Shown here: positions 1-13,242 of the stretch, piece by piece | How the letters are laid out: every line of letters begins with the position of its first letter | How positions within the stretch are numbered: position 1 is the first letter of the stretch | The notes under the pieces: generated by a model | Database searches by the model: none | What the model saw: only the letters and a program-made list of their open reading frames with translations | What the model was told of the DNA's origin: nothing | Program-made: the position numbers and the translations under genes | Assembly (NCBI GenBank): GCA_007133715.1 | Contig: SLMF01000032.1 | Coordinates: 1-13,242, forward strand | Origin: Planctomycetaceae bacterium | GTDB lineage: Bacteria > Planctomycetota > Planctomycetia > Pirellulales > Pirellulaceae | Length of the DNA: 13,242 nt | Direction: 5' to 3'

Positions 1-3000
1 CTGAATTCTCGCAACTGGACGATCACTTGGCCGACCTGGTCGCTGGTATCGATGCCCTTCATCCGCAGATTCTGTTGGAACGTACGGCGGATATCCTCCC
101 AGCGTCGGGCTTCTTCCGGGTTCAGCCGTCCCAGCAGTTCCTTGAACTTCAGCAGGTTTGCTTCCGTATTGCGGGTCAGCGTCTGAGCGTCGTTTTCGTA
201 GTTCGACAGGATCAGCGACTCGAGTTCCTGATCATTCATGATCGGCAGCACACGTTCGGCGATGCGGTTCATATTGCGGTAGGAACCTTGCAGCAGGAAA
301 GGCGGTTCCGTCCGATATTCATCGGCTTGGGCGGCCGAGCGGATATACTGCTGGTTGACCTGGAGGACGACATCGCGGACGCGGAGCAGTTTCCGCATGG
401 TGATCACGAAGTCATTGATTTCCTCCAAGCTGTAGTTGCCTTCCAGTTCGACGCCTTGGCGGACGTCTTCCTGGGCCATGCGGAGGATGGCGTAGACGTC
501 TTGCTGGCTGCGGGCGGCCAGTTGGTTGAGCACCGGGTTGGAGGTCAGGCAGTTTTCCAGGTAGCTCATTTCGAACACGTCGCGGGAATCGCCGATGATT
601 TCGCCCAGGTTATAGATATCAGCCCGGTTGGCCAGCATATCGGGGATCTGGAACACTTCGCCGCTTTCCGTATAGGGGTTTCCGGCCATGACGACGCAGA
701 TTTTCCGTCCGCGCAGGTCGTAGGTGCGAGTGCGTCCGCGATAGACGCCTTCGATCTTCCGCTGGGCGTCGCAGAGCGAGATGAACTTCTGCAGGAACTC
801 GGGATGGCAATGCTGGATGTCATCCACGTAGAGCATCACGTTATCGCCCATTTCCAGGGCCAGGTTCAATTTGTGCAGTTCTTCCCGGGCGGCCGCATTG
901 GGCGCTTCGGCCGGGTCCAGCGAGGTGACCTGATGCCCGACGGCGGGCCCGTTGATCTTCATGAAGATGATGCCCAAGCGGTTGGCGATGTATTCCATCA
1001 AGGTGGTCTTGCCATAGCCGGGCGGCGAGATGACCAGCAGCAGTCCCATCCGATCGGTGCGTTTCGCCTCGCCGGCCACGCCGATCTGTTTGGCCAGGTT
1101 GTCGCCGATCAGGGGCAGGTAGACCTGGTCGATCAACCGGTTCCGCACGAAGGAGGTGAGCACACGGGGTTTGAATTCGTCCAGTCTCAGGGTGTGGCGG
1201 GTCTGCTGGACCAGCTCTTTTTTCCGAGCGACATAGCGGCGGAAGCGGGGGACCACCTCCCGCTCATACCGGCTCAAGCGGGTCAGGAAGTGGTTATAGT
1301 TCAAGCGGTAGGTTCCCTGCTGGAGCTGCGGGTGGGAGCCGACCAATCCGTCGACCTCCCGCGTGACTTGGCCCTCCAGCACGCGTTCCGGCCGGGGCGG
1401 ATCGTCCCACAGCAGCAGGGCCACTTCGTCCACGTATTCGCCATCCTCGTGCTCGCGGGAACCGCGGTGGTCCAGGAACGAGGAGACCCAATCGCGGAGC
1501 AGGAGCAGGGTGCTGGTCGGGTCGTCCTGCAGATCTTGGAGGGAAGCGTGGAAGCGGGCCGTGTAATCGTGCTGGCGCAGGCGCCGCTGAAAGGCCTCGC
1601 ACAACGCGACGGCATGCCGGCTGACCACGAAGCGGGCATCGCCGCTGAGTTCGGCAAACAGGTATTCGGCCGCCTCCGCGGCCCGCCAGGGTTCGAACAG
1701 CCCCGCCTGTCGGGCCCAAGCGTCCAGCATGTCGAGCAATTCCGTGCGATACTGTTGCTGGGCCGAGGCTTCCGGGAACAGGCGGGCCACGGTGGCGAAG
1801 CCGGCCAATTGGGCCTGCATCCGCCGCTTCTGCTCCCGATCGCCGAAGGCTCGCCAGAAGCATTGCCCCATGGCTCGGGCTGGCGGCGAGAAACGCAGCA
1901 GGCCGACGGTGTGCTGCATTTCCAGCAGCGTCATCAGCAGTCGGCCCGCATCGTGATCGTGGACGCCCTTGGAATAGGATTCGTGGTAGCGGGGGCCCAT
2001 GAACCGCTGGATGAAGGCTTCGCGGGCCGCATCGTCCCACTCCAGCAGTTCTGCGCCCGTGGGAACGGATTCGCCCGGTTCAGCCGCCGGGCGGGTCAGG
2101 TACAGCAGCAGTTGGTAAGCCAGGTATTCGCCGCGATAGACGTGGCGGTTCTCGGACACCACCTCCTGTTCCCAGAAGTCGCGCAGCTCGAGCAGTTCCG
2201 GATCTTCGATCGGTTCGAAGAAATTCGTGCCGGACAGATGAAAACACATCTGTTCCTCGCGCAGCACGGTGGTCAATTCCAGCGGCTGGACGTTGACGGA
2301 GAAGCGGTGTTTTCCCAGCCGGATGATCATCGCCCCGTCGACGAACAGCTCCTGGCGGTCCTTCAGCTGGCGGACGGCATCTTCGCGGATGGTCTTCAAC
2401 TGGCTCTGCAGGTCGTCGACTTTGACGCTGTCACCCAAGTCGGCCAGCTGCTGGATCAGGTCGCGGACCTTTTGGATCATCAGGTCGGCGGCGAAGTAGC
2501 TGTGGATATCTTGGATCGTGGGGAGCGCCCCGACGCGGGCCTGGATCCCTTTCAGGATCCGTTCGGCGGCGCGGGTTAACGACCCGGCGCGGCGGTTGCG
2601 GGCTTCGACCAACTGCAGCTTGCGGGTCTCGAAGGCGTTGTAGATCTCGTCACGCTTCTCGGTCAGCTGCTGGACGAACTCGTCGAACTCGGCGAAGCGG
2701 CCTTCCAGCTCTTCCAGCTGGATCATCAGGCGGGTGAGCAGTTCTTCGCATTTTTCCGGGGTCTCGCTGACGTCCAGGTAGTTCACCACGCTCTGGTTCA
2801 GCAGTTTCATTTGCGAGGCGAATTCGGCCACGCCCTCGACGGACAGGAGTTCCTTGATCTTGCGTTTGAGGCCCGCCCGGGCGGTGTTGACGCGAGCGAA
2901 GATCGCCGAGATATGGTCGACGATGGTGGTCCGCTGGAGCGCGTCGTCGATCTTCAGGTTGCTGACGATATCGATCAGCAATTCCAGATCCCGCGCGGCT

Positions 3001-4883
3001 TCGCCGACCTGTGCTTCCAACTGGCGCGCGTCGCGGACGCGGGCCAGCGGTTCGATCGCCGCGGCCTGTTGATCCACTCGCTGGGCGTAGGGTTCGAGCG
3101 CGCGCGGGTCCAGCAGGAACTGGACGCAACGCTGGGCCAGCCGGTCCGCATGTTCGACCACCTCCGTTTCCAGCTGCTGGACGCGTTCGGGATGGACATA
3201 GCGGAGATCGCGGAGGCTGATGATCTCTCCGCGGACGGCCCGCAGTTCGGCCAGCGAGCGGACGAAATCGTCCACGTGTTCGAACCGGCGACGGTGGAGG
3301 GCTGCCAGAATCTCCTCGGCCTGCCCCGCCACGCGGCGGGTCTCGCGCGCGGTGTTTTCTCGCAGCCGCGTGACCTTCTCGAACTCCTCGATCGCCGCCG
3401 AGGCCGTGCCGCGGATCTCGGCCAACACCTCCTGCAGGCGGAAACACTCGGGACTGTCGATCCAGAAATAGCTGTCGCATACGTCGCCCGCCAGCTTGGC
3501 CAGATCGACATAAAGATTGCCGTAGGTGTCCTCCTTGGCGATCAGGTTCAGCACCTCATGGCATTCGGCCATGGCCCGGACCAGATCGCGGTTGCCGATC
3601 TTGAACAGGAGGGAATCGGATTTGGCGGGCGGCACGATCTCTTGGCGGAGGTAAGGCGTCTGCCAGATCTGCAGGGCATGATGCTTCTGCGGCTCCTGCT
3701 GGGCGCGGAACAGGATCAACTCGCCGCCGGGAAAGAAGGCCGCCCCGTTGCACGGCAGCGGGGTCTGCAACTGCTGGTCGATCACATTGTAACGCAACAG
3801 CACGTGTTCGCCGCTGTCGCGATTGTAGAACACGTACAAATAGTCCTCGCCATTCGGGGCCGCCAGCCGCCGCTCGAACAGCATGTCCGTCCATTCGTTC
3901 TCGAAAACCTTGTACTCGCCACTCTGCAAATAGTAGCCGTTGGCAAAGATGATCCCGTGATCGTCCGGCAGCAGCACGCAGGCGTGAGCCAGCGAATCCA
4001 GCCGCAGCGCCTGCTGGATCTTCTCGTTGTAGACGATATAGCGGAACTCGCGTTCCAGATAGGGCCGGATCTTCAGCAGGATCAGGTTGCCGACGATCGC
4101 GTAAGAGAACTCGCCGTCGTCCAGCGTCTGGTCCTTGTTCTCGACATCCTCCGCGTAGATACCTTCGCCCGAGTCGGTGTTGTTTTCGATCTTGATCGTC
4201 AGATCGCCCCCCACCGTCTCGACAAACACCCGATCCTCGATCGAGATGTGCGGATGCACCCCCGGCCGATGCTGGTCCCGGGTGGTGCGCACCCACGGGA
4301 ACTCGTATTGCGGCGGGTAGCGGAACTCGTGGTCGCTGCGGTTGTCCAGATACACCAGCCGTGAGCCGTCCAGGGCCCATTTGAACGTCTTGATATCCGA
4401 AACCTGCTGGCCCACGCGGAAGACCATGAACAGATGCGGCCCGATCAGCGAAAACTTGGCGAACACCGCATGGCGATAGTAGCGATAGACCTCGCGCAGA
4501 TCGCGTTCGAAACGCTCGTCGCGAATCAGCTCGAGATCATGCTGATGGAACGTGCCCTCGCGGAGTTCATGCACTGCGAACACGTCCGACAACTGGGTTT
4601 CCGTCTTCAACCCCAGGTGCACGTTGTAGCCGAAGATGAAGCGGTTGCCGATGGCCACCAGATCGCGGGGGACGCAATTGTGCTCGGTGGTAATCCGTTC
4701 GGTGCTGACCAGCCGCGTCTCGATCGCACCGAAGACCTCCTTGCGCGCCTGGTTCAGTAGTTCCAGGCGGTTGCGCAATTCGCGTGCCTGAGTCTGCAAC
4801 CGATTCCGAATGACCTCGTACGTGCCGCCTTCCAGCTGGATCGCAGCGGGCTCGGCGGCCGGGGTGCGGGCGTCGTCAGCCAT
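1..4883 (-). CDS. Giant multidomain AAA+ ATPase, MoxR/AAA_5-like clade; 5' end and first 1627 codons in the window, 3' end beyond the window start. Layout: N-terminal ~560-aa non-ATPase domain, central ~700-aa alpha-helical region, C-terminal AAA+ module.
   Basis: I translated the minus-strand frame aligned with codon triplets 3-5 up to 4881-4883. It is open from ATG 4883..4881 down to base 3, with a stop (plus tca 4899-4901) just upstream. It is preceded by the flotillin stop after a 4-nt gap. GC3 is strong and amino-acid composition looks real. N-terminus: MADDARTPAAEPAAIQLEGGTYEVIRNRLQTQARELRNRLELL... Walker A LLLVISPPGYGKTTL lies at plus 999..1043 (Lys approx residue 1292). Walker B NVMLYVDDIQ lies at 813..842. 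Sensor-1 CVVMAGNPYT (the NP motif typical of MoxR/midasin/dynein AAA_5) lies at 669..698. A sensor-2-like GSYRNMNRI lies at 261..287. The plus-strand ORFs 27..2579, 2811..4364 and 4434..4760 share one frame and are split only by plus TAA/TGA/TAG, which the minus frame reads as Leu/Ser/Leu. They are antisense shadows rich in L/P/H/Q/R/V/A/D/G with almost no Lys. Confidence 0.8.
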   Translation of the reverse strand, partial: MADDARTPAAEPAAIQLEGGTYEVIRNRLQTQARELRNRLELLNQARKEVFGAIETRLVSTERITTEHNCVPRDLVAIGNRFIFGYNVHLGLKTETQLSDVFAVHELREGTFHQHDLELIRDERFERDLREVYRYYRHAVFAKFSLIGPHLFMVFRVGQQVSDIKTFKWALDGSRLVYLDNRSDHEFRYPPQYEFPWVRTTRDQHRPGVHPHISIEDRVFVETVGGDLTIKIENNTDSGEGIYAEDVENKDQTLDDGEFSYAIVGNLILLKIRPYLEREFRYIVYNEKIQQALRLDSLAHACVLLPDDHGIIFANGYYLQSGEYKVFENEWTDMLFERRLAAPNGEDYLYVFYNRDSGEHVLLRYNVIDQQLQTPLPCNGAAFFPGGELILFRAQQEPQKHHALQIWQTPYLRQEIVPPAKSDSLLFKIGNRDLVRAMAECHEVLNLIAKEDTYGNLYVDLAKLAGDVCDSYFWIDSPECFRLQEVLAEIRGTASAAIEEFEKVTRLRENTARETRRVAGQAEEILAALHRRRFEHVDDFVRSLAELRAVRGEIISLRDLRYVHPERVQQLETEVVEHADRLAQRCVQFLLDPRALEPYAQRVDQQAAAIEPLARVRDARQLEAQVGEAARDLELLIDIVSNLKIDDALQRTTIVDHISAIFARVNTARAGLKRKIKELLSVEGVAEFASQMKLLNQSVVNYLDVSETPEKCEELLTRLMIQLEELEGRFAEFDEFVQQLTEKRDEIYNAFETRKLQLVEARNRRAGSLTRAAERILKGIQARVGALPTIQDIHSYFAADLMIQKVRDLIQQLADLGDSVKVDDLQSQLKTIREDAVRQLKDRQELFVDGAMIIRLGKHRFSVNVQPLELTTVLREEQMCFHLSGTNFFEPIEDPELLELRDFWEQEVVSENRHVYRGEYLAYQLLLYLTRPAAEPGESVPTGAELLEWDDAAREAFIQRFMGPRYHESYSKGVHDHDAGRLLMTLLEMQHTVGLLRFSPPARAMGQCFWRAFGDREQKRRMQAQLAGFATVARLFPEASAQQQYRTELLDMLDAWARQAGLFEPWRAAEAAEYLFAELSGDARFVVSRHAVALCEAFQRRLRQHDYTARFHASLQDLQDDPTSTLLLLRDWVSSFLDHRGSREHEDGEYVDEVALLLWDDPPRPERVLEGQVTREVDGLVGSHPQLQQGTYRLNYNHFLTRLSRYEREVVPRFRRYVARKKELVQQTRHTLRLDEFKPRVLTSFVRNRLIDQVYLPLIGDNLAKQIGVAGEAKRTDRMGLLLVISPPGYGKTTLMEYIANRLGIIFMKINGPAVGHQVTSLDPAEAPNAAAREELHKLNLALEMGDNVMLYVDDIQHCHPEFLQKFISLCDAQRKIEGVYRGRTRTYDLRGRKICVVMAGNPYTESGEVFQIPDMLANRADIYNLGEIIGDSRDVFEMSYLENCLTSNPVLNQLAARSQQDVYAILRMAQEDVRQGVELEGNYSLEEINDFVITMRKLLRVRDVVLQVNQQYIRSAAQADEYRTEPPFLLQGSYRNMNRIAERVLPIMNDQELESLILSNYENDAQTLTRNTEANLLKFKELLGRLNPEEARRWEDIRRTFQQNLRMKGIDTSDQVGQVIVQLREF

Positions 4884-4887
4884 CAGA

Positions 4888-6879
4888 TCACGCTTCCTTC
4901 AATTCGAGCGCAGACACCTTACGATCGGAGATCCCCAAACGCTTGACCGCATGTAACAGGCGACTCAGTTCACTCTTTGCTTCGTCGCTGTCGGTCATCC
5001 CCATCATTTTGGCGATCAGGGCGGCTACCGACAGATCTTTGATATCTTCGGCGCTCAGATCGAAGCGGCCGATGAACTGCTGCAGCTTGTCCTGGAAGTA
5101 TTCCGGATTGCCGTTGAAGAAGGTATTCTTCACATCGGTCAAGGTCTGGCTGTTATTCACCAGGCGATCGACCGCTTTGCCGCCCTGGACCGCTTCCACG
5201 ATCTTGTCGAAGAAGCTGGTTTCGCCGCCCACGATATCGATCCGTGCGCTCTTGAGGGCTTCGCCGACGATTCCTGCCTGGGCCTGAGCGATCAACCGCT
5301 GGGCGTCGATCGTGGCCAGATCGATATCCTTGTCCTTGTTCAACCGCAGCTTGAACTCCTCGTGTTCTTTGCCGACGCTGTCGAACAGCTTCATGGCCTC
5401 CGCTTTTTCTTCGATGCCTTGGGCCTCGCTGCTGAACTTCAATTTCAGCACATTGGCTTCGGCCGTGCCCTGTTTTTCCAGGGCCGTCGCTTTGGCCTGG
5501 ATCACTTGGGCCTCGGCCAGACCGCCCGCGGCCTGGTCGGCCGTCTTGGCCTCCGCCAGCATTTTGGTGGCCTGCATCTGCTTTTCAGAAACCTGCCGCT
5601 CGGCCTCGGCTTCGACCACCACCTGTTCTGCTCGCAGGGCCGCTGCCAGTTTGGCCGCTTCGGCCGCCTTGACCTGCCGCACCATCGCCTCCTGAGCCGC
5701 CATCTCCGCCTGCGTCACCTGGACCCGCTTCTGCCGATCCGCCCCGGCAAACTGCTCCGTGTCCTTGATCCGCTCCTGCTCCTCGACCACCGACCGCTCG
5801 ACCGCCACCCGCTCGCGAATCACCTCCTGAATGTTCCGCCGCTCGACTTCGACCGCCTTGTCCTTGTCGATCTGAGCCAAGGCCACCACGCGTTCCCGCT
5901 CGGTCGCCTCCAGATCCCGGTCCCGCGTGACACGCTCCCGTTCCACCGCGTCCGTCCGCTCCTTGTTCCGCTGGGCCACAATCACCTGCCGCTCCTTGTT
6001 CTCCTCGGCCACCATCAACTCCTCGTCCGTGCGGATCTGGGCGCTCTGCGAACGCAAACGCTCCTGCTCCTGGACCATGCGGGCCTCGGCCTGCTGCCGC
6101 GCCGTGACCTCCGCCACCTCCCGCTGCTGCTTCTGCTCCGCCTCGATCTGCTGCCGCTCCAACACCAGAATCGCCTCCCGCGCCTCGACGTCCTGCTTCT
6201 TGATCGTCTTCTCCTTCTCGCGATTGATCTCGTTGGCCAGGATATGTTCCCGCGCGGTCAGGTCCGTGATCTTCTTGATCCCCATCGCATCCAGAATGTT
6301 CTGCGGATCCATCATGCCCACCGAGGTCTGTTCCAGATAGTCGATGGCACAATCGTCCAGCACGTAGCCGTTCAAATCGGTCCCGATGACCTTCAGAATC
6401 TCCTCCTTGAATTTGTCGCGTTCCTCGTACAACTCGACGAAATCGAACCGCTTGCCGACCGTTTTCAAGGCCTCGGAAAACTTGGCATCAAACAATTCGA
6501 CCAGCGCAGCCTGATCGGAAGCCCGGCGGCAGCCCAGCGATTGCGCCACCTGCAGGATCGCATCCCGCGTGTTGTTCACGCGGACAAAGAAAGCCACCTC
6601 GATGTCCGCCCGCATGTTATCCCGGCAGATCAAGCCCTGGCTGCCCTTGCGGTGGATCGGAATCCGCTTCACCGACAAATCCATCCGCTCGCCCCGGTGG
6701 ACCACGGGGTAGACCATGATCCCCTGGCCCGTCACGGCCACCAACCCATGCCAACCGGAACGGATCAGCGCCTCTTCCGGACCCACCTTTTGGTAAAACG
6801 TGTTCAACAAAAAGGCGACGGCCACAAAACCAAACACACACAACGCCAACACGGCGCCGACAATCAACAGGATCTCCAT
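4888..6879 (-). CDS. Flotillin-like SPFH/Band-7 protein (YqiK/FloT-like), 664 aa. N-terminal TM helix, SPFH domain, long E/R/Q/A-rich coiled coil, C-terminal flotillin tail.
   Basis: Translation from ATG 6879..6877: MEILLIVGAVLALCVFGFVAVAFLLNTFYQKVGPEEALIRSGWHGLVAVTGQGIMVYPVVHRGERMDLSVKRIPI... has a hydrophobic N-terminus followed by an SPFH core, then about 300 aa of heptad-like EAEQKQQREVAEV... sequence. The track start at 7239 overlaps the upstream gene. I chose the internal ATG because it is preceded by GAGGTGGAG (SD) with 7-nt spacing and sits exactly at the upstream gene's stop (TGATG). Confidence 0.88.
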   Translation of the reverse strand: MEILLIVGAVLALCVFGFVAVAFLLNTFYQKVGPEEALIRSGWHGLVAVTGQGIMVYPVVHRGERMDLSVKRIPIHRKGSQGLICRDNMRADIEVAFFVRVNNTRDAILQVAQSLGCRRASDQAALVELFDAKFSEALKTVGKRFDFVELYEERDKFKEEILKVIGTDLNGYVLDDCAIDYLEQTSVGMMDPQNILDAMGIKKITDLTAREHILANEINREKEKTIKKQDVEAREAILVLERQQIEAEQKQQREVAEVTARQQAEARMVQEQERLRSQSAQIRTDEELMVAEENKERQVIVAQRNKERTDAVERERVTRDRDLEATERERVVALAQIDKDKAVEVERRNIQEVIRERVAVERSVVEEQERIKDTEQFAGADRQKRVQVTQAEMAAQEAMVRQVKAAEAAKLAAALRAEQVVVEAEAERQVSEKQMQATKMLAEAKTADQAAGGLAEAQVIQAKATALEKQGTAEANVLKLKFSSEAQGIEEKAEAMKLFDSVGKEHEEFKLRLNKDKDIDLATIDAQRLIAQAQAGIVGEALKSARIDIVGGETSFFDKIVEAVQGGKAVDRLVNNSQTLTDVKNTFFNGNPEYFQDKLQQFIGRFDLSAEDIKDLSVAALIAKMMGMTDSDEAKSELSRLLHAVKRLGISDRKVSALELKEA

Positions 6880-7526
6880 CACTCCACCTCTGCTTCCCCG
6901 GTTGTCACGAAATAGATTTGCTTTGCGGGATCGAAACCGACAATCGTGGCCGCATCCCCCTGAGACAACGGAGGACCGTCCTGCGTCCGAACATGGAGCC
7001 TCAACGGTGCCCCCTCCGTCGCATACTCCGCTTGACCAAACTGCTCGTTCACCACGCTGCTGACCACCCGGCAGGTCTTTCCCAGCATCTGTTCTGCGGG
7101 ATGGGGCGGCGAAACGTCGAATTTTCCTCGCAAGGGGTAGGTCAAAACCTTCGTCCCCACCAACGCCAAGGCCGCGTTCCGGAGAGCGTACTGCCCCGCC
7201 ACCCACCACGACTCGCGCAGCAGCGGATCGTCCAACCACCGATCAAACGCCACCGAGACTGCCCACCAAAGAAGTGAGAATACGCTCAACCAGATCACCA
7301 AGGGCACGCGCCCCAGGTGCAAGAACCGCAGCAGCACCACGCCGACACCCACCACCTCCTGCAGATCCGGATGACCATCCAGATCCAGGTCGAAATCCAG
7401 GATTTGCAGATCCATCCCGGCCAGGATGGCCAGCGACCAGTACACGCTGAGCAGGAGCAACAGCAAGCTGGCCGGGAGTGTCGCCCCCGAGAAGCAGCTG
7501 TGCAAAAACTCCAGGAACTCCGACAT
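6879..7526 (-). CDS. NfeD/YqiJ-like membrane protein (215 aa). N-terminal hydrophobic helices plus a C-terminal NfeD OB-fold beta-barrel. The usual partner of SPFH proteins.
   Basis: MSEFLEFLHSCFSGATLPASLLLLLLSVYWSLAILAGM... and ...VIWLSVFSLLWWAVSVAF are TM segments. The C-terminus GKTCRVVSSVVNEQFGQAEYATEGAPLRLHVRTQDGPPLSQGDAATIVGFDPAKQIYFV shows the NfeD OB-fold pattern of alternating G/V/hydrophobic residues. Gene order and size match E. coli yqiJ-yqiK. Confidence 0.72.
   Translation of the reverse strand: MSEFLEFLHSCFSGATLPASLLLLLLSVYWSLAILAGMDLQILDFDLDLDGHPDLQEVVGVGVVLLRFLHLGRVPLVIWLSVFSLLWWAVSVAFDRWLDDPLLRESWWVAGQYALRNAALALVGTKVLTYPLRGKFDVSPPHPAEQMLGKTCRVVSSVVNEQFGQAEYATEGAPLRLHVRTQDGPPLSQGDAATIVGFDPAKQIYFVTTGEAEVE
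6880..6890 (-). promoter_or_regulatory. Shine-Dalgarno (GAGGTGGAG) for the flotillin gene, embedded in the 3' end of the NfeD-like gene
   Basis: The minus-strand sequence reads AGAGGTGGAGTGATG. The NfeD stop TGA and the flotillin ATG overlap by 1 nt. Confidence 0.6.
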
Positions 7527-9490: not shown

Positions 9491-9540
9491 AAACGCGGCT
9501 TCCAGCCGCGTTGCTGTAGACGCGGCTTCCAGCCGCGTTA
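9491..9540. repeat. Two tandem copies (27-bp period) of a GC-rich hairpin unit ACGCGGCT-TCC-AGCCGCGT (REP-like palindromic unit)
   Basis: Copy 1 at 9492-9512 is aacgcggct tcc agccgcgtt. Copy 2 at 9520-9538 is acgcggct tcc agccgcgt. The first copy is followed by GCTG, the second by TAAATTCTT. Confidence 0.75.
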
Positions 9541-9556
9541 AATTCTTAGGGTGTCA

Positions 9557-9579
9557 GATGCGCGCTTTTCGCGCGCATC
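9557..9579. repeat. Perfect hairpin GATGCGCGC-TTTTC-GCGCGCATC (9-bp GC stem)
   Basis: 9557-9565 and 9571-9579 are reverse complements. It could be a bidirectional terminator-like structure between the convergent DUF11 and DegT genes, but there is no clear U-tract. Confidence 0.6.
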
Positions 9580-9639
9580 ATCCAGTCGCCCTCATCCAGT
9601 CGCCCTCATCCAGTCGCCCTCATCCAGTCGCCCTCATCC
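9578..9639. repeat. Tandem repeat, 14-bp unit TCATCCAGTCGCCC x4.4, followed by a GAGCAC x2.7 micro-repeat (9648-9664)
   Basis: Exact copies at 9578-9591, 9592-9605, 9606-9619 and 9620-9633, then a partial copy TCATCC. The unit is not a multiple of 3 and there are no unique spacers, so it is not CRISPR. Confidence 0.85.
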
Positions 9640-9815
9640 TCGAACGCGAGGAGCACGAGCACGAGCGGAGCCTTTTTTGGTTGGGGCACAGCCGCGTTAA
9701 CAGGAGAGCGGCAAGATGCCGCTTCTACCGGTTGCCGTTCCGTCTTTCAGCGACGATGCCGAACGGCTCTCGTTTTCCCCGAATTGGGTCCCCCGTTTTC
9801 GCCGTGCGCGGGCCG

Positions 9816-11006
9816 TCAGGCCGCTTGGCGGTTGTGGCGGACTACCTCGCCGATCGCTTGCACCACGCGCTGCAATTCGACATCGGCCAGTTCCGGAAAG
9901 ATCGGCAGACTGAGCACCTCGCGGGCCGCTCGCTCGGTCTCCGGAAGACTGCCCGGTCCATAGCCCAAGGGGCGGAAGCATTCCTGCTGGTGCAAGCCCA
10001 GCGGGTAATAGATTTCCGTACCGATCTGCTGGTCCGCCAATTGCCCCCGCAGGGTATCCCGCAAACCGTGCGGCACGCGGACGGTGAATTGGTTCCAGAC
10101 GTGAAAGCGATCGGGAACTTCGTATGGCAGCTGCACCCAGTCCGCCAAGCCGGCTTGAGAAAACAGCTGGTGGTACCGTGCCGCATTGGCGCGCCGCTGT
10201 TCACACCATCTTCCCAGTTGCGTGATTTTGACATTCAACACGGCGGCCTGGAGGGAATCCAAGCGGCTGTTGATACCGACCGTGTGGTGGTAGTAGCGGA
10301 TTTGCATGCCGTGGGCGGACAATTGCCGCAGTTTGTCGGCCAGCGATGGGCGTTGGGTGGTCAGCATGCCTCCGTCGCCGAAGCCGCCCAGATTCTTGGT
10401 GGGATAGAAGCTGAAGCAGCCGATATCGCCCATCGATCCTGCGGGCTGTCCTTGGAATTCGGCTCCGATCGCTTGGGCCACGTCTTCGATCACGGCCACC
10501 CCGTGGCGTCGGGCGATCGCCTGAATGGCATCCATTTGGGCACATTGGCCGAACAAATGGACCACCAGAATGGCTTTGGTCGCTGGCGTGATGGCCGCTT
10601 CGATCTGGGCCGGGTCGATGTTGAACGTGTCCGCTTCGATATCGGCGAACACGATGCGTGCCCCCAGCCGCCAGATGCAGCTGGCCGTCGCAAAGAACGT
10701 GAAGCTGGGCGTAATCACCTCGTCGCCCGGTTTGATATCCAGCGCCATCAGGGCCAGCAGCAGGGCATCGCTGCCGGAGGCGCAGCCGACGGCGTGCTGG
10801 GTCTGGCAGATCGCGGCCACCGACTGTTCCAGTTGCTGGACATCGGGGCCGTAGAGGAATCGACCCGAATCACAAACCCCTCGGATCGCCGCCAGGATTT
10901 CTTCACGTAGCGGCTGGTTTCCACGCTGGACGTCCAGCAGGGGCACCGCTTCCGGGGGCGAATCCGGATTGGAGGAGGAGGGGAGGTTCGAGGGGGCGGT
11001 CTTCAT
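9816..11006 (-). CDS. DegT/DnrJ/EryC1/StrS-family PLP-dependent sugar aminotransferase (396 aa)
   Basis: The conserved N-terminal block VPLLDVQRGNQPLREEILAAIRGVCDSGRFLYGPDV is present. So are the DALLLALMALDIKPGDEVITPSFTFFAT block and the PLP-lysine region GDIGCFSFYPTKNLGGFGDGGM. AGGAAG lies 8 nt upstream of ATG 11006. The plus ORF 9411..10910 is its antisense shadow. Confidence 0.9.
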   Translation of the reverse strand: MKTAPSNLPSSSNPDSPPEAVPLLDVQRGNQPLREEILAAIRGVCDSGRFLYGPDVQQLEQSVAAICQTQHAVGCASGSDALLLALMALDIKPGDEVITPSFTFFATASCIWRLGARIVFADIEADTFNIDPAQIEAAITPATKAILVVHLFGQCAQMDAIQAIARRHGVAVIEDVAQAIGAEFQGQPAGSMGDIGCFSFYPTKNLGGFGDGGMLTTQRPSLADKLRQLSAHGMQIRYYHHTVGINSRLDSLQAAVLNVKITQLGRWCEQRRANAARYHQLFSQAGLADWVQLPYEVPDRFHVWNQFTVRVPHGLRDTLRGQLADQQIGTEIYYPLGLHQQECFRPLGYGPGSLPETERAAREVLSLPIFPELADVELQRVVQAIGEVVRHNRQAA

Positions 11007-11020: not shown

Positions 11021-11574
11021 TGCCTGTGTGCGAACGAATGACCGGGAAACGGTCCCCAAAAAATAAGCAAGGCCCAGATTACGCAACCTGTCGCGGGAGG
11101 TCAAGATCGGCTGGTCCCGTGCGCGTCGCTCGGATACTCGGGGCGAATCAACCGCGAAACACACGAAAAACCTGCGCTGAAGCCGGGATCCCCGCAGAAA
11201 AACCCCTCTTCCGTACTGAAAGGCCACGAGGAACCCGGAGCGCCTCTCTGGTGCAGATGCTGGAAGCGGGCCAGAATGTCGAGCCACGAGTCGCGTTGCC
11301 AAACCTCCTGCCACAGATGGTCCGTGGGATAGCCATGCGGATAGAGTCCGGAGTTTGAAGGCGAATATCTTCTCACGCGGACACGCCCAGCACTCCGGCC
11401 GAACCATCCAGCGCCCGGCACCGGCTGTCCAACACGGTTGGGGCCGTCTGATTGCCGTGCAATTGTTCCAGCCTCCATCACGTGGCCGGTTGCGTCTGTT
11501 GAAGGAACGCCAGGAACACGCCGGGATCGAGATGTAGCTGGCCAGATTCTCGGCGATTTACCTCGGATCGGGAT

Positions 11575-11796
11575 TCAACGAGCCGGTCGGTGCGAAAACA
11601 AGTGGGATTGGGTGGTATCGGACCCGACTTCGACGGGCCGATTTGGATCGCCAAGTAATTGTCGCAGATCTTTCGGGCGGTATGAGCCTGTGCGCTGGTA
11701 CTCTTCGATCATTGCTCTAACCCAATCGGCCGGAGGAAGCTCATGCAGTTTCGCCCGAATTTCCCGTTGGAGATCATCGTCGGTCACAGTAGACAT
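11575..11796 (-). CDS. Small hypothetical protein (73 aa), acidic and helical. Second gene of a lower-GC two-gene module.
   Basis: MSTVTDDDLQREIRAKLHELPPADWVRAMIEEYQRTGSYRPKDLRQLLGDPNRPVEVGSDTTQSHLFSHRPAR. I chose the internal ATG at 11796..11794 rather than the track start at 11880 because a perfect AAGGAGG SD (plus 11805-11811) lies 8 nt upstream. The start overlaps the upstream ORF by 23 nt. Confidence 0.5.
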   Translation of the reverse strand: MSTVTDDDLQREIRAKLHELPPADWVRAMIEEYQRTGSYRPKDLRQLLGDPNRPVEVGSDTTQSHLFSHRPAR

Positions 11797-12328
11797 CGAA
11801 AAAGCCTCCTTCCCCAATGGCTGCATCAAAACTCTTGTGACGTACCCAACGGAATTTTCTGTCGGTGGTGATAGCAGCAATCTCTACAGGACCCCCGCAT
11901 ACGGGGGCGATATGCGAAAACTTCAGCATCTTGATTGTAGTGTAAATCGATGCATGCACCCAGTCAATCGCCTCGCGGATTGGCAAGTCGCGAGGTTGGC
12001 CCAGACACGACGCTTGAACCAAGTCGAGCAGGTCTTTCTCGCTCCCGGTCCACTTGGTCGACTGAAAAATTCGCATGAAGAGGGGCTCGTCGATACCATA
12101 TAATAGCCGGTCTAACAGATTTGGGCAGCCCCAGAATCGGGTGCTTCCGACGGCAAGCGCTTCGATCGGGACTGGAGCGGTAAGGGTCGGAGCGTACCGC
12201 ACCTCAAAAGCGGCGGGCCGACGGTCTTTCATCAAATACCCCCCCAAGCAGAATCCACCGGAGTAATTCTGTGTAATCCGGCTCAGTTCGTCCTCTTCCT
12301 CCGGCGTTCTTGTCGGTTGCCCATACAA
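11774..12328 (-). CDS. Hypothetical protein (184 aa from the TTG start; real start uncertain, and an internal ATG may be used). No family recognised.
   Basis: Amino-acid composition is balanced (K, N, Y, W, M all present): ...FEVRYAPTLTAPVPIEALAVGSTRFWGCPNLLDRLLYGIDEPLFMRIFQSTKWTGSEKDLLDLVQASCLGQPRDLPIREAIDWVHASIYTTIKMLKFSHIAPVCGGPVEIAAITTDRKFRWV... Local GC is about 52-57% against about 65-68% for neighbouring genes. There is no in-frame ATG between the upstream stop (12362-12364) and the TTG at 12328. Confidence 0.45.
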   Translation of the reverse strand: MYGQPTRTPEEEDELSRITQNYSGGFCLGGYLMKDRRPAAFEVRYAPTLTAPVPIEALAVGSTRFWGCPNLLDRLLYGIDEPLFMRIFQSTKWTGSEKDLLDLVQASCLGQPRDLPIREAIDWVHASIYTTIKMLKFSHIAPVCGGPVEIAAITTDRKFRWVRHKSFDAAIGEGGFFDVYCDRR

Positions 12329-12456
12329 GACCCTCTGCGGACAGATAGCATGCGGCGATTGTCATGGTCACAACCTCGGGCTCTTAGTGATGCTAACGGC
12401 CACCACGAGCAGCAAAAAACAGCACAATCGCGGGAGAAGTCAACAGAAACAACGCC

Positions 12457-12494
12457 CCGCAGAAGCACCGTGTTGCTCGGCGGGGCTTCTGCGG
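12457..12494. repeat. Inverted repeat CCGCAGAAGC ... GCTTCTGCGG (10-bp arms, 18-nt loop) in the divergent promoter region
   Basis: Arms at 12457-12466 and 12485-12494 are exact reverse complements. It sits between the minus-strand 184-aa gene and the plus-strand secreted-protein gene. Confidence 0.55.
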
Positions 12495-12588
12495 TACGAG
12501 GGGGAATCGGCCTTGATCTGCGGGGCGGATTTCGTTAGATCCCCGGCAGCTCTTTTCAAGATCTTGAGCCTTTTCGGCGAAAAATTCC

Positions 12589-13242
12589 ATGGCACGACGC
12601 TTTCATTGCTGGTTACTCGGGGTTGCGCTGGCAGCTTTGCCCGCCGCAGTCCGCTCGACCGACGCTTCGGAATCCGCGGTGCGACTGGCCGCGACCGGCG
12701 TGCTGGAAAAACAGGTCGACCCTCGGGGCAGCCAGTACGTTCTGTTGGACGAGCGGGGCGAAGCCTTGTATCACGTGGCGGGTTCCGAGCGGGTGGATTT
12801 GACCCGTTTTGCGGGCCAGCAGGTCGAGGTTGTGGGTACGCTTCGGTCTCGGGGTCGGCCTGCGTTGCAGGAGTTGCAAGCGGATTGGATCGCTCCAGCC
12901 TCCCGCGTAGTTCCCGCCCATTTTGTTGAGATCACGGACGAGAGTTCGGTGCTGGCGGATCCGGCAGCCCGTCCTCTGCCCGACCTGGACGACGACCCCC
13001 CGCCGATGGAGCCAATTCGGCCCGAGGGCCGGTCTCCCGGCGAACTGCCGGTACCGCCGGACTCGCTACGGGCACCTCCCAGTGGTGACTCCCAGACCAC
13101 TGAACGCCGACGTCTGATCTTCGAGGGACCGCGAAACTGGGAACCGGGCCACGAACGCCAGTACCCTCCCCACAGCCAGAGCGTACCTCCCCATTTCGAA
13201 CCTTATGATCGCAGCAGGTCGCCTGCGGCAACTGCCAGTCAC
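12589..13242 (+). CDS. Secreted protein, 5' portion (218 codons), running off the window end. Signal peptide, a small globular segment, then a Pro-rich low-complexity region.
   Basis: I translated frame 12589 by hand: MARRFHCWLLGVALAALPAAVRSTDASESAVRLAATGVLEKQVDPRGSQYVLLDERGEALYHVAGSERVDLTRFAGQQVEVVGTLRSRGRPALQELQADWIAPASRVVPAHFVEITDESSVLADPAARPLPDLDDDPPPMEPIRPEGRSPGELPVPPDSLRAPPSGDSQTTERRRLIFEGPRNWEPGHERQYPPHSQSVPPHFEPYDRSRSPAATASH... The frame has a stop at 12565-12567 and then stays open to the window end. It is absent from the ORF track because it has no stop. Confidence 0.55.
   Translation, partial: MARRFHCWLLGVALAALPAAVRSTDASESAVRLAATGVLEKQVDPRGSQYVLLDERGEALYHVAGSERVDLTRFAGQQVEVVGTLRSRGRPALQELQADWIAPASRVVPAHFVEITDESSVLADPAARPLPDLDDDPPPMEPIRPEGRSPGELPVPPDSLRAPPSGDSQTTERRRLIFEGPRNWEPGHERQYPPHSQSVPPHFEPYDRSRSPAATASH

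Follow-up and report, generated by a model that had tools for sequence, protein, structure and literature searches.

Within the first 4,883 bases of the planctomycete contig SLMF01000032.1 (assembly GCA_007133715.1; Planctomycetaceae bacterium, Pirellulaceae), three long open reading frames (ORFs) follow one another in a single frame of the plus strand, and one frame of the minus strand is open over the same interval. This raises the question of which strand is coding and of what the encoded protein does. The stretch analyzed here, hereafter the window, is 13,242 nt long and is read on the forward strand. The available data show that the three plus-strand ORFs are codon-aligned antisense shadows of one minus-strand gene, that bases 3..4883 of the minus strand encode the greater part of a giant, cytoplasmic ATPase belonging to PF12458/DUF3686, and that this gene stands last in a translationally coupled operon, behind genes related to yqiJ and yqiK. 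With moderate confidence, the whole can be read as an operon in which the giant ATPase remodels flotillin/PspA membrane assemblies.

A minus-strand gene and its antisense shadows

Translation of the reverse strand gives a frame without a single stop between the one at 4898 and base 3. Its first ATG, at 4883, is consistent with the N-termini of homologous proteins and opens 1627 codons that run off the window edge. This long frame is missing from the ORF listing of the window because ORFs cut by an end of the sequence are not listed. An earlier note on this DNA had placed the real gene on the minus strand, with no stop in its coding frame, and had described the plus ORFs as sharing one frame, codon-aligned to that gene. 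Coordinates and translation bear out both statements, and no overlooked in-frame minus stop is present between 3 and 4883.

The distribution of stop codons is highly asymmetric. Over 1..4883, the minus coding frame contains none and the plus frame codon-aligned to it contains three, and the other four frames contain 16 to 56; mononucleotide shuffles of the same interval give 48 ± 6 stops per frame. The three plus-strand stops, TAA at 2577, TGA at 4362 and TAG at 4758, read TTA, TCA and CTA on the minus strand, as the earlier note had it. Each of these codons occurs a single time in the ATPase gene, among 192 leucine and 61 serine codons for which uniform synonymous usage predicts about 74 codons of these kinds. 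Thus, the antisense frame has just three stops because A-ending codons are strongly avoided, the GC content at third codon positions (GC3) being 0.82. The codon-position check proposed in the earlier note also comes out on the side of the minus strand: the GC contents at the three positions (0.675/0.363/0.823) resemble those of the other genes of the window, and the plus ORFs display their mirror image, with a first-position GC of 0.80–0.84. The putative plus-strand products have an extreme composition, with 0.4% lysine (about 3 residues in 850 amino acids (aa), the count already given in the note), 0.1% asparagine, 0.1% tryptophan and almost no cysteine.

Comparison of 81 orthologs, the set used for all antisense-stop and motif statistics, shows that the number of in-frame antisense stops follows GC3 (Spearman rho −0.92), with 0–13 stops in the high-GC3 orthologs and 86–141 in the low-GC3 ones. 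A contig of assembly GCA_036681025.1 (L001), which is 95.6% identical to the window at the nucleotide level and extends beyond its base 1, has no antisense break at all, versus three in the window. The openness of the antisense frame is a side effect of codon bias and is not maintained among relatives. The same type of shadow overlies two further genes of the window, those of the flotillin-like protein and of an aminotransferase (Table 1).

It could nevertheless be argued that at least one of the long plus ORFs is a genuine overlapping antisense gene. Lengths of 850 and 517 aa are unusual, and there is a precedent in translated antisense ORFs of GC-rich bacteria, two long ones having been reported in Pseudomonas aeruginosa (PMC8850804). 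However, neither of the two long plus products contains a Pfam domain or has a Pfam homolog, their composition is as skewed as described above, their breaks differ between near-identical relatives and multiply in low-GC orthologs, shadows of the same kind recur on two other genes, and codon bias alone accounts for the openness. An overlapping gene is therefore extremely unlikely, and the absence of Pfam matches, the mirrored codon-position GC and the unconserved openness led to the rejection of the plus ORFs as genes. By contrast, the minus translation matches three Pfam families and more than 5,200 homologs, in agreement with the earlier assignment of the coding strand. The concern that annotation would miss the giant protein is not borne out, as a near-identical homolog has already been called in GenBank. 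The feature is an ordinary catalogued gene, accompanied by a well-understood codon-bias artefact.

The artefact is a trap for annotation. In genomes with a high GC3, the antisense frame that is aligned with the codons of a long gene may lack stops over hundreds of codons, and lists of stop-to-stop ORFs do not show a real gene that continues past the end of its contig. The shadow effect was seen here on three genes of this one window.

Family and architecture of the giant ATPase

The minus translation matches the Pfam model PF12458 (DUF3686) over its full length (positions 1–448 of 448; E = 1.3e-186, 620.9 bits versus a cut-off of 25). It also matches PF25472 (DUF7902) and the AAA model PF00004 (25.5 bits versus a cut-off of 21.2). 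The best of the homologs (P0001), from a planctomycete metagenome-assembled genome, is 97% identical and 1772 aa long. Homologs are 1611–1891 aa long, with a Pfam set identical to that of the window ATPase, and are named "DNA repair ATPase" (NCBI), "ATPase involved in DNA repair" (Pfam) or, for some, "MoxR-like ATPase" (JGI). At the 50% identity level, the family of the N-terminal domain comprises 776 representative clusters among 1.84 billion, and proteins carrying this domain almost always have 1.6–1.9 thousand residues, or else are fragments. Members occur on 13 plasmid or chromid records, including pQBR103 and plasmids of Deinococcus and Streptomyces; no homolog was found on any phage record searched. 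One full-length homolog (P0046, "eukprot" source, 1711 aa, 63% identical) is filed under a eukaryotic proteome; so close a similarity to planctomycete proteins makes bacterial contamination the probable origin.

Compared with the PF12458/PF25472 giant "DNA repair ATPases", the window protein shares both full-length models, the C-terminal AAA+ module, the length and the domain order. Nothing substantive differs; the window copy is merely cut about 145 codons short of its stop. On the related contig L001, the ATPase stop lies 145 codons past the window edge, giving a complete protein of 1772 aa. The missing C-terminal residues, read from L001, look helical and of low complexity and end with PPPPPRR. 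No sign of an extra domain was seen in this tail, so that the additional C-terminal domain that the earlier note had looked for beyond base 1 does not materialize. No transmembrane (TM) helix is predicted in the ATPase.

An AlphaFold2 model of residues 1–520 (105 homologs; predicted local distance difference test score, pLDDT, of 86) comprises a helix (21–51), about 26 strands (57–408) and further helices (425–519). The model suggests that the N-terminal domain is propeller-like, as a divergent beta-propeller. It is followed, at residues ~480–860, by a region containing DUF7902, in which E, K, R, Q, A and L make up 0.56–0.59 of the residues and proline and glycine are scarce. From its composition this region is probably a coiled coil, the term also used for this part of the ATPase by Ravi et al. 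(2024; PMC11237479). The model of residues 861–1627 (pLDDT 87) shows a small sheet, a helical domain (~917–1160), a canonical AAA+ alpha/beta core, and a helical lid with the C-terminal region.

All four motifs pointed out in the earlier note, GYGKTT, YVDDIQ, MAGNPY and GS.R (here GSYR), were located (at residues 1289, 1352, 1399 and 1533, respectively). For the first three, the assignments as Walker A, Walker B and sensor-1 hold, as their positions fit the predicted fold and they are invariant across phyla, the ortholog set spanning at least seven phyla or classes. The residues expected of a functional AAA+ module (K1292, D1354–D1355, N1402 and R1420) are all present, on the expected secondary-structure elements. 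The catalytic motifs do not vary in any of the 81 orthologs, so that the protein is almost certainly an active ATPase. By motif analogy with the MoxR-type pattern NP..E.G...P.A..R, R1420 can be proposed as the arginine finger. The location of GSYR in the model makes a sensor-2 role plausible for this motif. A conserved basic hairpin (1376–1389) precedes strand beta4 in the model. Searches of PDB sequences with the ATPase and its profile returned only P-loop-level matches, to p97 and RuvB. At the structural level, the closest neighbors of the AAA+ module are the MoxR-type ATPases CbbQ and NorQ.

A YqiJ-YqiK-ATPase operon

The gene encoding the ATPase is the third and last of a translationally coupled operon, after the YqiJ/NfeD-like and YqiK/flotillin-like genes. 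The stop codon of the first gene overlaps the start of the second one in a TGATG sequence, and the stop of the flotillin-like gene is separated from the ATG of the ATPase by a 4 nt gap, with a Shine-Dalgarno-like stretch, GAAGGAAG. The ORF listing gives a GTG-initiated ORF of 783 aa at 4888..7239 (minus strand), which overshoots the true ATG start, at 6879, by 120 codons and reaches into the YqiJ-like gene. A scan for promoters and terminators upstream of the operon gave nothing. The sizes of the YqiJ-like, flotillin-like and ATPase proteins are 215/663/1772 aa on L001 and 203/695/1810 aa in Symmachiella dynata.

Identification of the two upstream genes required sensitive comparisons. The flotillin-like protein is 28% identical to E. 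coli YqiK over 439 aa (BLASTP, E = 6e-36), a match that covers the TM and SPFH part. It has no match in Pfam, NCBIfam, PHROGs or PDB, having diverged too far to be recognized by the Band_7 and Flotillin models of Pfam. The family profile of the YqiJ-like protein aligns with E. coli YqiJ over 178 columns (hhalign probability 96.4%, E = 1.2e-9), and the Pfam YqiJ_N model scores 21.9 bits, just under its cut-off of 23. The two genes are thus homologous to yqiJ and yqiK, and are coupled in the same order as in the NfeD-flotillin operons yqiJ-yqiK of E. coli and yuaF-floT of B. subtilis. E. coli K-12, however, has no such ATPase after yqiK, the next annotated features being sibD/ibsD, and B. subtilis is not known to have one next to floT. 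As a side observation, the GC skew is strongly negative over 5000..7500 of the window, with a minimum of −0.26, and the AT skew fluctuates along the flotillin-like gene; the long E/A/K/Q-rich region that this gene encodes on the minus strand is the probable cause.

The conservation of this arrangement was studied in loci obtained by a motif scan with one genome per species, which gave at least 568 confirmed loci. Eighty of them were kept, from Planctomycetota, Bacteroidota, Verrucomicrobiota, Desulfobacterota, Clostridia, Omnitrophota and Kiritimatiellota. Among those with enough upstream sequence, 64 of 67, from several phyla, have a flotillin homolog upstream of the ATPase and in the same orientation, and a YqiJ-like gene precedes the flotillin gene in 56 of 63. 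ORFs of 60–290 aa are found between flotillin and ATPase in several loci (L012, L018, L031, L034, L035, L042, L056, L076 and others). A conserved fourth gene at this place was considered and rejected, the gap ORFs being heterogeneous, with clusters of at most four loci.

An extended version of the operon is also found. Directly upstream, CesT_Tir_1 (E = 4e-54) and PspA (E = 4e-41) genes are present in about 18–20 of the related loci, apparently all from Bacteroidota. Counted over the 80 loci, CesT_Tir_1 is found in 18, PspA in 20 and a divergent repressor with a helix-turn-helix (HTH) and a peptidase S24 domain in 17 (for example L013, 1974..4105, L015, L017, L025, L032 and L034). The autocleaving, LexA/CI-like nature of this HTH-S24 repressor suggests a stress-inducible control of the extended operon. 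A further association with PspA is seen on plasmid pQBR103 of Pseudomonas fluorescens SBW25 (L084, record 85112..97641), where a yjf-like cluster containing PspA, rhomboid, DUF2491, DUF350, DUF1190 and glutathionylspermidine synthase genes is followed, in the same orientation, by the SPFH and ATPase genes. Between this cluster and the SPFH gene, at the place expected for a YqiJ-like gene, stands a gene annotated "hypothetical protein". The SBW25/pQBR103 host-plasmid pair is genetically tractable.

These gene associations are already known from comparative genomics. An operon comprising a band-7/flotillin protein, a YqiJ/YuaF protein and an ATPase with beta-propeller, coiled-coil and AAA+ regions, together with CesT/Tir and PspA, has been described, along with widespread "abbreviated operons" lacking PspA (Ravi et al., 2024; PMC11237479). 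A Dokdonia example, in Table S3 of the same study, includes a divergent cHTH+protease gene. The window agrees with this description in its three proteins and in their order, and corresponds to the abbreviated form, with a DUF11-repeat gene divergently upstream instead of CesT/Tir, PspA and HTH-S24; the extended form is the one recovered here in Bacteroidota loci. The window thus adds no new kind of system.

Beyond the operon, the divergent DUF11-repeat gene occupies the same position on L001. Two insertions relative to L001 were observed further along the window. One of about 1.35 kb (11129..12478) interrupts the homolog of an exported protein of at least 506 aa, which resumes at ~12479..13242. 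It has a lower GC content (0.556–0.57) and includes an ORF (11438..12103, plus strand) without Pfam match; no convincing terminal repeats were found around it. It could represent either a mobile element or a cassette specific to the strain. The other, of about 187 bp (9513..9698), is intergenic, between the DUF11-repeat and aminotransferase genes, and a 33-bp stretch at 9509–9541 matches L001 sequence beside its junction.

Table 1. Features of the window (coordinates in the 13,242-nt stretch; residue numbers refer to the ATPase).
Feature	Position	Strand	Remarks
Giant DUF3686/AAA+ ATPase, partial coding sequence	3..4883	-	aa 1-1627 of ~1772; 3' end beyond base 1
DUF3686 domain, aa 35-473	3465..4781	-	N-terminal helix, then predicted divergent beta-propeller-like module, ~26 strands, aa 57-408
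DUF7902, aa 595-678	2850..3101	-	PF25472, E 8.8e-25; within long helical region
AAA+ alpha/beta core, aa 1266-1426	606..1088	-	MoxR-like by structure
Walker A GYGKTT, aa 1289, K1292	1002..1019	-	After strand beta1 in model; SPPGYGKTT invariant 81/81
Walker B YVDDIQ, aa 1352, D1354-D1355	813..830	-	End of beta3 in model; DDIQH invariant 81/81
Sensor-1 region MAGNPY, aa 1399, N1402	672..689	-	End of beta4 in model; MAGNP invariant 81/81
Candidate arginine finger R1420 in IPDMLANRAD	624..626	-	End of helix before beta5 in model; invariant 81/81
Candidate sensor-2 GSYR, aa 1533-1536, R1536	276..287	-	QGSYR invariant 81/81; N-terminus of lid-region helix 1535-1543 in model
YqiK/flotillin-like SPFH protein, 663 aa	4888..6879	-	YqiK homology; TM helix aa 3-21
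YqiJ/YuaF (NfeD-type) membrane protein, 215 aa	6879..7526	-	hhalign to YqiJ; stop overlaps flotillin start
Shadow ORF, 850 aa	27..2579	+	No Pfam match; mirror-image GC; 0.4% Lys; openness not conserved; not a gene
Shadow ORF, 517 aa	2811..4364	+	Same frame as 27..2579; no Pfam match; not a gene
Shadow ORF, 108 aa	4434..4760	+	Same frame; composition and non-conserved openness; not a gene
Shadow ORF, 517 aa	5362..6915	+	Overlies flotillin-like gene; no Pfam match
Shadow ORF, 499 aa	9411..10910	+	Overlies aminotransferase gene; no Pfam match
DUF11/CARDB protein with immunoglobulin-like repeats, 496 aa	7812..9302	+	PF01345, E 2e-30; divergent from operon
DegT/DnrJ/EryC1 aminotransferase	9816..11006	-	Pfam E 1.8e-120

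A proposed role at the membrane

Gene neighborhood and fold point to ATP-driven remodeling of flotillin/PspA assemblies as the most likely role of the ATPase. According to this proposal, the C-terminal module would form a MoxR-like AAA+ ring, and the N-terminal propeller and long coiled coil would dock onto, or reach into, the cytoplasmic side of the flotillin/NfeD assembly, or would bind PspA. Under envelope stress, ATP hydrolysis could then drive the assembly, disassembly or remodeling of SPFH-microdomain or PspA (ESCRT-III-like) complexes. Functional analogies can be found in HflK/C-FtsH and in Vps4-ESCRT-III, where an SPFH scaffold or an ESCRT-III-type polymer, of which PspA is an example, is paired with a ring AAA+ ATPase. 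These are analogies only: homology is limited to the AAA+ fold, and the window ATPase has neither a protease nor an MIT domain. In B. subtilis, the SPFH protein YdjI recruits PspA to the membrane, and a Vps4-like ATPase appears to be absent in bacteria according to a 2025 review (PMC7619361). A more specific version of the proposal would make the DUF3686 ATPase the missing ATP-driven remodeler of flotillin cages and/or PspA polymers, an analog of Vps4 or of FtsH in HflK/C, docking through its propeller and coiled coil. Such a precise version is speculative and unlikely to hold as stated. If true, it would explain the genomic welding of the ATPase to YqiJ-YqiK across phyla, as well as its joining to PspA in Bacteroidota and Pseudomonas.

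It should, however, be noted that several observations weigh against the remodeling role. A flotillin gene is absent from the vicinity in 3 of the 67 loci, and the 13-kb window contains none of the CesT/Tir, PspA and HTH-S24 repressor genes, the DUF11-repeat gene being found upstream. The match of the AAA+ module to MoxR-type sequences is weak, since the Pfam model AAA_5 scores 20.9 bits, below its cut-off of 22, and alignment of the AAA+ region with E. coli RavA (hhalign) reaches a probability of 18%, from Walker A to Walker B only, too weak a match to place sensor-2. Walker B carries DD and not the usual DE, so that the kinetics of hydrolysis may be unusual. Finally, no experimental study of the giant ATPase family was found in the literature, the function being deduced from neighborhood and fold only; literature queries by family name, by association with SPFH proteins and on a flotillin-MoxR link returned nothing relevant.

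The likeness to MoxR-type proteins could be taken further, the ATPase then acting as a classical MoxR chaperone in the maturation of a metalloenzyme, with the help of a VWA/MIDAS partner, as in CbbQ-CbbO, NorQ-NorD and RavA-ViaA. This would agree with the nearest structures, CbbQ and NorQ, and with the JGI name of some homologs. The NP..E.G...P.A..R and G-S-x-R motifs, which resemble those of MoxR proteins, would also fit. The partner is, however, lacking. Of the six gene families that recur in the flanks and were either scanned against Pfam or read, none is a VWA protein. Annotated VWA genes are likewise missing from L002 and pQBR103, and directly downstream of the ATPase no family recurs in more than six of about 70 loci. 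The genes downstream of the Symmachiella ATPase are unrelated and on the opposite strand; on L001, only 295 bases are available after the stop. A VWA-type partner beyond base 1, which the earlier note had envisaged, was rejected on the basis of L001, Symmachiella and 80 other loci, none having been found in the related loci examined. Moreover, relative to MoxR-type AAA+ proteins (CbbQ, NorQ, RavA and midasin), the window ATPase has about 1250 additional N-terminal residues, not present in known MoxR proteins, and DD rather than DE in Walker B. Together with a C-terminal extension that is helical and of low complexity, and with the sub-threshold AAA_5 score, this makes a classical MoxR-VWA function improbable. 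About as improbable is a role of the three-gene unit in anti-phage defense or biological conflict, with a giant nucleoside triphosphatase combining a repeat sensor and a membrane effector by analogy with STAND/NLR proteins. The size and multidomain nature of an ATPase with a predicted propeller, its occurrence on the pQBR103 megaplasmid and on Deinococcus and Streptomyces plasmids, the variable small ORFs between flotillin and ATPase in some loci and the historical designation of PspA as a "phage shock" protein could be seen as favoring such a role. However, the best PADLOC matches of the ATPase are marginal (E = 5.7e-4 and 1.9e-3) and its partner proteins have none; phage-encoded homologs were not found, and neither was a nuclease, TIR or other effector domain. 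The arrangement of an N-terminal propeller with a C-terminal MoxR-like AAA+ module is the reverse of that of STAND proteins. Gene content and order are kept across phyla, with proteins 45–70% identical, which looks more like a housekeeping stress module than like a fast-evolving island.

The database name itself would make the protein an SMC/RecN-like DNA-repair ATPase, its flotillin neighborhood being incidental. Besides these names, given by Pfam and NCBI, two observations would be compatible with this: in PADLOC the helical region weakly matches the SMC-like protein LmuB (E = 5.7e-4), and a LexA/CI-like HTH-S24 repressor lies divergently upstream in 17 related loci. Yet, the LmuB match falls in the coiled-coil-like region, searches of the ATPase revealed no DNA-binding, nuclease, helicase or SMC-hinge domain, and RuvB equivalog models score 20–22 bits against cut-offs of 282–299, through the P-loop only. 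The conserved partners are membrane proteins and PspA, without repair genes, and no paper backing the name was found. A DNA-repair function is therefore very unlikely; the ATPase is probably not a DNA-repair enzyme.

None of the tests made here supports the "DNA repair ATPase" label carried by this family, which probably misleads. Its conserved gene context points instead to the biology of membrane microdomains and of envelope stress. The residual interest of the locus lies in the biology of a giant ATPase linked to flotillin, and in a database name that is probably wrong.

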